Below the pieces are notes generated by a model. That model searched no databases. It worked only from the letters and a program-made list of their open reading frames with translations, and was not told where the DNA came from. Shown here one piece after another: positions 3,185 through 4,428 of a DNA stretch of 5,101 bases (position 1 is the first letter of the stretch; every line of letters starts with the position of its first letter). Location of the stretch: IMG/VR virus record IMGVR_UViG_2698536355_000001, one strand, 5' to 3'. The translations under genes and the position numbers were made by a program. The DNA comes from a virus (lineage: Monodnaviria > Loebvirae > Hofneiviricota > Faserviricetes > Tubulavirales > Inoviridae).

Positions 3185-4428
3185 ATGAAAAGGAAAATAT
3201 TAATTATTTCCGCTATTCTTATTTCTTCTTTTTCACATGCTGATTCATGGGAAAGCATTACTAAATCTACTTTTCAAAGCTCTGCCTATTCTGAAAGTAA
3301 GCAAATAACCAACCAAGATGGCACTAAACAAACTGTTTATTATATTGATGCAGCTATGCAGGCTTCTGCCTGTCAGGGGGCTAAAGACAGTGCTCAGGGT
3401 GTTTTTACTCAGGTTAAACCAACTTATGAGGGAGTATGGCCTAACTCTGAATTCCGTCTTGTGTTTTCTGACGCTTGTACCTACAGCGACTCTCCGGGCC
3501 AGAAAGATAAATACTGGAATTTAACCGCTTATATTATCGGTGATATTCAGCGTTCTATTCCTGATGAAAAACCCTCCGAGCCTACACCTGAAGAAATTTG
3601 TGAAGCTAAACCTCCTGAAGAAGGTGTATTTAATAATGTCTATCTTATGATGGTGATCGTTATATTTATTATAACGGTTGTGAATATGAGGCCACTGGCG
3701 TCATTGTTTGCCAGGGTGATGGCACTGTTTGTGCGGCGACATGGAAGCCTACCGGAACCGTAGCCGATCCTTCAGATAAGCCTTCTTCTCCTGCTGGCGA
3801 TGGTGGGGATACTGGAGGCGGGGATACGGGGGGTGGTGATACTGGAGGAGGTGATACAGGCGGTGGTAACTCAGGTGGCGGTAACTCAGGTGGTAATGGC
3901 TCAAGTATTACCAAAGGAGATATTCAGTCAGCTATTGAAGGTGCTTCACCTAAAATGGCCAGTGAGATTCATGATAAGTTAACAGAAAAAGACACCTCAT
4001 CTGATGATAAAAAATCGGCTGATGAACAGACTAAAAATAATATAAATCGTCTTGGTGACGCTATAAATAACCTTACTCGCGGAGCCGGACGTTTTGCTGA
4101 TCCTTCTGGCGGTGATTCTCGTTATGGGAAAGGGGATTCCGAATTAGACAGTGCTTCAACATTGGCTGAATCCGAATTAGGAATAGCTAAAGATTCTCAT
4201 GGTGCTTTATGGGAAGCATTCCTGAATAAAGGTGCTATGCTCCCTAGTTTACCTAATGGTAATGGTTGTTCTGAACTTGTTATTTTCCCCGGTGAAATTT
4301 ATCAGATTGATATTGAATGCGATAAATTACTTACTATCAAAGATGCGCTTTCATGGATTTTTTATTGCCTTACCTTCTGGTATGTATTTACGTCTTTAAC
4401 CTCATTACTTCGTAAAGGAGGTGAGTAA
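3185..4428 (+). pseudogene. gIII: Adsorption/minor coat protein pIII (g3p), interrupted by an apparent 1-nt frameshift near 3644..3648
   Basis: ATG at 3185 with signal peptide MKRKILIISAILISSFSHA. Frame 2 reads through ...[18 protein letters not shown] and then becomes hydrophobic nonsense ending at 3763. Frame 1 opens at 3637 and reads [37 protein letters not shown], matching recalled M13 N1 (DRYANYEGCLWNATGVVVCTGDETQCYGTWVPIG), then the Gly-rich linker and a C-terminal domain ending ...IDIECDKLL...[17 protein letters not shown] (M13: IDCDKINL...FMYVFSTFANILRNKES). One extra T in the run at 3645..3646 would restore a single ~414 aa frame. Confidence 0.85.
3796..3900 (+). repeat. In-frame tandem repeats encoding the Gly-rich linker of pIII
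   Basis: About four 15-nt units encoding GGGDT followed by two encoding GGGNS, read directly from frame 1. The minus-strand 'PPVSPPPVS' ORF at 3669..3914 is the antisense of this repeat. Confidence 0.8.

Follow-up and report, generated by a model that had tools for sequence, protein, structure and literature searches.

In one lineage of Escherichia coli, gene III of a filamentous prophage has very probably been inactivated by a real, vertically inherited deletion of a single nucleotide. The lesion is an ordinary frameshift pseudogene, and nothing in it departs from that description. Relatives of the gene are read in a single frame, the lesion amounts to a simple indel when set against an intact gene that is 99.9% identical, and, as judged from assemblies rather than reads, it is present in many assemblies beyond this one contig.

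Organization of the prophage

The window, that is, the whole stretch of 5101 bases analysed here, is contig CYAM01000110.1 of the short-read E. coli draft assembly GCA_001284805.1, and it holds 4.9 kb of a filamentous (Inovirus) prophage between two partial copies of IS1. According to Pfam matches and annotation, the plus strand encodes, in order, gII, gV, a G7P-2-like miniprotein, gVIII, gIII, gVI and the start of gI. The inovirus module (gII, gV, gVIII, gIII, gVI, gI/zot and the gIV secretin, with a divergent HTH repressor) is present when the window and its relatives are taken together; this contig has a cut gI and no gIV, and in related E. coli genomes the prophage goes on with gI and the gIV secretin. 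The features outside gene III to which we refer are as follows.

1..90, plus strand: 3′ end of IS1, oriented like the right copy; intergenic, upstream of the 140 aa ORF
162-584, minus strand: hydrophobic, membrane-like ORF of 140 aa at the left end, conserved in such prophages
683-1129, minus strand: HTH repressor gene, divergent from gII
1301 (start), plus strand: gII (PF05144/PF05155)
4428..4769, plus strand: gene VI homologue (DUF5455; Pfam PF17537)
4770..4997, plus strand: remnant of gene I (Zot-like), first 76 codons, followed by IS1
4998..5101, plus strand: 5′ end of IS1 (left inverted repeat onward), matching IS1 in phage P1 records with 100% identity

The 140 aa ORF at 162-584 had no Pfam match, and beyond the IS1 insertion point next to it relatives carry a 369 aa ORF of unknown function. 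Similarity to the intact prophage of E. coli SCPM-O-B-12142, described below, stops at 4997. Related E. coli prophages are located directly downstream of hipBA, often in tandem repeats, at a flanking site where dif presumably lies. A megablast search of the window against a phage collection returned matches to IS1 only, and no named phage genome containing the prophage. On its gene content and order, the element is a CUS-1/Ypf-like filamentous prophage; its integration at dif is putative, the dif/att sites lying outside the window.

Some non-coding features of the prophage were also recorded. Between the repressor gene and gII there is a 27 nt imperfect inverted repeat (1175-1231; 81% complementary, with a 3 nt spacer), near which the motif TGCTCA recurs; this region probably serves as repressor operator and promoter. 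Between gVIII and gIII, a hairpin at 3149-3171 (GGGGCA-CTCGT-TGCCCC) is followed by TTTATT; a stem-loop terminator is annotated in the same place in IKe, and a consensus terminator scan of the window did not list this hairpin. The scan did return a weak hairpin at 3709-3724, within the frame overlap of gene III, at chance frequency.

Gene III is divided between two reading frames

The sequence-only reading of this DNA, made before our analysis, had recognized that both halves of pIII are coding and occupy different frames. We confirmed its coordinates, and both halves match solved G3P domains. Frame 2 is open from the ATG at 3185 to the TAG at 3761-3763 (192 codons by translation), and frame 1, which encodes clear pIII sequence, is open from 3637, just past a pair of stop codons (TAA TAA, 3631-3636), to the TAA at 4426-4428. 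Frame 3 is full of stops. The resulting parts of gene III are as follows.

3185..3643, plus strand: 5′ part of gene III in the native frame 2, codons 1-153 (from translation, Pfam, PDB and alignment)
3637..3763, plus strand: frame overlap zone of 127 nt, exactly where both open frames coincide
3643..3644, plus strand: deletion site, where one T of the TT in TAT/TCT is gone (from DNA alignment with two intact orthologues)
3644..3763, plus strand: out-of-frame tail of 39 codons, followed by the TAG at 3761-3763
3643..4428, plus strand: 3′ part of gene III in frame 1, native codons 154-414 and TAA

The 5′ part encodes a signal peptide (residues 1-19, by homology with the annotated signal peptide of IKe), a pilus-binding domain at about residues 20-128 and the TolA-binding domain as far as its residue 24. 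The 3′ part encodes the remainder of the TolA-binding domain, a linker rich in Gly, Asp and Thr, and the C-terminal assembly and membrane-anchor domain; as predicted by translation, the gene III start no longer leads to its synthesis. The 39-residue tail is hydrophobic, with a mean Kyte-Doolittle value of 1.2 overall and of 3.4 for its first 13 residues.

Gene callers report a separate 157 aa ORF within the 3′ part, running from an internal ATG at 3955 to 4428 and spanning the C-terminal domain. This ATG has no clear Shine-Dalgarno sequence upstream. The call is probably an artefact to which the frameshift has led, although the ORF may be expressed.

The missing base lies between codons 153 and 154

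The prophage of E. coli SCPM-O-B-12142 (locus L001) is 99.9% identical to positions 91-4997 of the window and carries an intact gene III of 1245 nt, encoding a 414 aa ‘attachment protein’ (WP_053902684.1). Compared base by base, the two prophages show two differences in 91-4997: a substitution at 3068, and the absence from the window of one T between 3643 and 3644, which is the sole difference in gene III. The substitution falls in gVIII, which encodes the major coat protein, where codon 58 is GCT (Ala) in the window and GTT (Val) in SCPM-O-B-12142. The deletion site reads CTATTCTTAT in intact relatives and CTATCTTAT in the window, or, divided into codons, GTC TAT TCT TAT GAT (V-Y-S-Y-D) in intact genes against GTC TAT CTT ATG AT here. 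When a T is added after 3643, the encoded protein aligns with WP_053902684.1 as an identical sequence. The native protein reads NNVYSYDGDRY at this point; frame 2 is native up to Y153 (3641-3643), and frame 1 is native from the TCT at 3643-3645.

The identity of the residue at the junction fixes the position of the lesion. Residue 154 is Ser in four E. coli orthologues, and orthologues with approximately 92% and 83% DNA identity, as well as the gene III of the UM146 prophage, are in frame and have Ser at the position of the lesion. The sequence-only reading had also ascribed the split to the loss of a single T, and that part of its claim stood when tested against the 99.9% identical intact gene, whereas the site it gave was 3 nt off. 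Its repair of CTTAT to CTTTAT would place Leu at residue 154; we ruled this repair out, as the orthologues carry a conserved Ser and the T was lost 3 nt upstream. It had further taken frame 2 to be sensible through the Leu codon CTT (3644..3646) and frame 1 from the TAT at 3646, but the orthologues put the switch at 3643, and what had been described as a short T run amounts to no more than the dinucleotide TT. The comparison with orthologous gene III sequences that it had suggested confirms the one-base T deletion in the window.

The repaired product is an IKe-type attachment protein

Pfam recognizes PF21443 at residues 22-125 of the protein (E=1.9e-25, above the gathering score). In the intact relative, residues 20-128 match the pilus-binding domain of IKe G3P (4EO0, E=1e-27) and residues 130-195 match the TolA-binding domain of the same protein (4EO1, E=1e-25). 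There are matches also to 1G3P and 2G3P (M13/fd pIII), and HMMER reproduced the alignment of the junction with M13 N1 (NVWKDDKTLDRYANYEG) that had been proposed from the sequence. The C-terminal domain aligns with those of IKe and fd/M13 G3P (8B3O, E=1.2e-21), with a Gly-rich linker and a hydrophobic anchor ending in ...SLLRKG. Searched with the intact relative, which is equal to the repaired window protein, PF05357 gives a match of E=8.4e-8 and 32.3 bits against a cut-off of 20.8; in Pfam this hit is absent from both halves of the window gene III as it stands. On all these domain tests, the product of the repaired gene III is an IKe-type G3P attachment protein.

The likeness to the G3P proteins of IKe and I2-2 (Lineavirus) amounts to approximately 53% amino acid identity, in an alignment that covers about 90% of the repaired protein, and a protein-level search returned IKe, I2-2 and the Erwinia PEar phages at 52-54%. 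The order of domains is shared with IKe and I2-2, namely signal peptide, pilus-binding domain, TolA-binding domain, Gly-rich linker and C-terminal domain, but the window gene differs in being split at codon 154 and in having a shorter linker. The replicons also differ: IKe and I2-2 are 6.9 kb free-replicating phages, whereas the element studied here is an integrated 9 kb prophage. Compared with pIII of M13, fd and f1, the frameshift lies in the homologue of N1 (the TolA-binding domain), and the C-terminal domain is homologous too. In these Ff phages, however, N1 stands at the front and is followed by N2, which binds the F pilus, whereas in this prophage and in IKe the pilus-binding domain, which is unrelated to Ff N2, precedes the TolA-binding domain.

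At the level of genome organization, the relatives are of another kind. The UM146 prophage, which we take to be of the CUS-1 type, has approximately 84% DNA identity to the window over about 80% of its length. CUS-1 of E. coli O18:K1:H7, in which the gene III homologue is puvA, and Ypf-phi of Yersinia pestis share the organization of this prophage (PMC4266046), with the order HTH, gII, gV, gVII-like, gVIII, gIII, gVI, gI/zot and gIV. The hipBA-adjacent neighbourhood seen in the relatives of the window and the occurrence of tandem copies are likewise found in CUS-1 and Ypf-phi (PMC4266046). The prophage described here has other accessory ORFs at its left end, and gene III is intact in CUS-1 and Ypf-phi, where the interruption of puvA in the literature is experimental; here, a natural frameshift is combined with IS1.

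Programmed recoding does not account for the two frames

A programmed −1 ribosomal frameshift, or transcriptional slippage, within 3637-3763 could in principle restore a full-length, functional pIII from a gene arranged in this way. The two frames overlap by 127 nt and, on our reading of the sequence, a −1 shift at the TAT codon that re-read T3643 would restore the native protein exactly. As the mark of recoding we took an in-phase slippery heptamer, or a homopolymer of about six or more nucleotides, within the overlap. A scan of 3600-3770, which includes the overlap, was negative in every phase for X XXY YYZ heptamers and showed no base repeated four or more times in succession, and programmed frameshifting and slippage were rejected on this basis. 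Furthermore, tRNA-Tyr on UAU cannot re-pair on CUA.

The comparative evidence points the same way. The two-frame arrangement was absent from all homologues examined, each of which encodes pIII in a single frame, and one orthologue differs from the window gene III only by this base. The two-frame state is thus derived and very recent, and is not conserved. We give almost no credence to recoding; the sequence-only reading had likewise found no support for it. The split of gene III is better read as a lesion.

The deletion is shared by one E. coli lineage

A single-base difference in a draft genome invites a simpler explanation, and the sequence-only reading had left open whether the indel was genuine or had arisen in sequencing or assembly, in which case the true genome would read TATTCT and gene III would be intact. 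Single-base indels are the commonest type of assembly error, the window is a 5.1 kb contig from a draft short-read assembly, and the nearest complete RefSeq genome carries the intact gene. In a metagenome scan, two contigs matched the site and both had the intact allele, a result that says nothing about the lineage itself. The distribution of the truncated product nevertheless argues strongly for a genuine mutation. The exact 192 aa protein, nonsense tail included, was found in a public assembly collection on 82 contigs (108 index blocks), drawn from NCBI, ENA and Logan and from different pipelines, runs and projects. Among the carriers are Sanger draft assemblies, the runs SRR28801437, SRR29270441 and SRR11658261, and a 4.87 Mb contig of GCA_977064715.1 in which both of two tandem copies encode the truncated product. 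NCBI in fact already lists the protein, under the name ‘Uncharacterised protein [Escherichia coli]’ (CTS82439.1 and others). The site itself is a TT dinucleotide, not an error-prone homopolymer.

The frameshift allele also travels with other markers. The frameshift loci that we fetched (L003-L008) either matched the window at every base up to 4997 or departed from it at one or two other bases. Every one of them had the C3068 variant, and all those reaching that far had the IS1/phage junction at window position 90/91. Three linked derived markers across independent projects and assemblers indicate that the mutation has been inherited within one E. coli clone, and an error of sequencing or assembly is very improbable. 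For comparison, the identical intact protein was found on 38 contigs, and its cluster has 167 members, mostly of 414 aa among the members listed. An exact-pattern scan of species-representative genomes (one per species) found neither allele.

IS1 and tandem copies in the lineage

The suggestion that the prophage is decaying is supported by the IS1 sequence at both ends of the contig. The left-hand junction and the frameshift are common to the lineage, and other lineage members have intact genes I and IV. In GCA_977064715.1 (L003, 4985-20579), two tandem units of 9853 bp each contain IS1 and the gene III frameshift, and the units are identical over the 5742 bases compared. Because both units have both lesions and are identical, the duplication, or a homogenization of the copies, came after both lesions. 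The intact genes I and IV and the tandem units together imply that the element is not grossly degraded and that the mutation is recent. On these sequence comparisons, decay of the prophage has begun in the lineage, but recently. In Ypf-phi, the tandem copy number of the dif-integrated prophage changes by homologous recombination, without virions (PMC4266046).

The surroundings of IS1 show further variation. Of the loci examined, this contig alone has the junction of zot with IS1 at 4998, which cuts gene I after codon 76. To the right of IS1 (IRR/phage nucleotide 91) the DNA is constant across the lineage, and the left flank varies (L003 6139, L005 6139 and 14725, window 4998), being formed by the side of the phage that carries the 369 aa ORF, by the cybB region, by sequence downstream of an 82 aa ORF, or by zot. 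This suggests that IS1 has repeatedly brought about adjacent deletions or rearrangements around a single copy of the element, perhaps inside a tandem array.

Consequences for the phage

The proposed consequences follow the order of the domains. The loss of one T of the TT at codons 153/154 breaks the gene at codon 154, when 24 residues of the TolA-binding domain have been encoded. From the normal start, a product of 192 aa would be made, consisting of the signal peptide, the pilus-binding domain, 24 TolA-binding residues and the 39-residue nonsense tail, and it would lack what remains of the TolA-binding domain, together with the Gly-rich linker and C-terminal domain. In Ff phages, the C-terminal domain of pIII anchors the protein in the inner membrane, caps the virion, terminates assembly and allows the release of stable virions, and entry depends on the TolA-binding domain. 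Given the roles of the lost domains in Ff phages, we infer that the prophage would make no released, infectious particles, and would no longer be able to spread by infection. In this contig, the IS1 that cuts gene I after codon 76 would be expected to block assembly as well. The ATG of gene VI overlaps the gene III stop (TAATG, 4425-4430) and has its own strong Shine-Dalgarno sequence, AAGGAGGTGA, upstream; any translational coupling of gene VI to gene III would be lost in the mutant.

The truncated gene might, alternatively, have been kept because it is useful, with the pilus-binding domain on its hydrophobic tail, secreted or tethered to the membrane, blocking conjugative pili or superinfection, or with the loss of pIII turning a costly producer of phage into a harmless element passed on vertically. 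The pilus-binding domain is kept whole, and soluble N-terminal domains of f1 g3p inhibit F conjugation and confer resistance to infection. More contigs have the frameshift allele (82) than the identical intact allele (38), and the mutated prophage was tandemly duplicated after the lesion. A second, independent −1 frameshift occurs approximately 27 nt upstream in another allele, P0010. However, the contig counts reflect the sampling of one clone and not selection, tandem copy number can shift through homologous recombination, with no need of virions (PMC4266046), and IS1 has caused further random decay in the lineage. Retention for benefit is, in our judgement, highly improbable, and we prefer ordinary decay of gene III. 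Highly improbable, too, is the more specific proposal that a clonally successful lineage has kept and tandemly duplicated a prophage whose pIII, cut down to an exported pilus-binding domain with a hydrophobic tail, either acts as a decoy against conjugative pili or superinfecting IKe-like phages, or leaves the phage non-releasable and bound to the cell.

The P0010 allele comes from a single Logan contig, in which the −1 frameshift is at the equivalent of approximately 3615-3620 (...AKPP/KKVYSIMSIL...) and leads into the same nonsense frame; this frameshift may be real or an error. If such a benefit were true, P0010 would hint at recurrent selection for losing the TolA-binding and C-terminal parts of the protein.

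Beyond annotation, the significance of the gene III deletion is small. The ORF at 3185-3763 and the called ORF at 3955-4428 are best annotated together, as a single gene III pseudogene with a frameshift and not as ‘uncharacterised proteins’. The deletion, the IS1 junction and the gVIII SNP together make a handy clonal marker for one E. coli lineage. As puvA, the gene III homologue of CUS-1, has been linked to fitness in vivo (PMC4266046), this natural gene III knockout could serve as a comparison strain.
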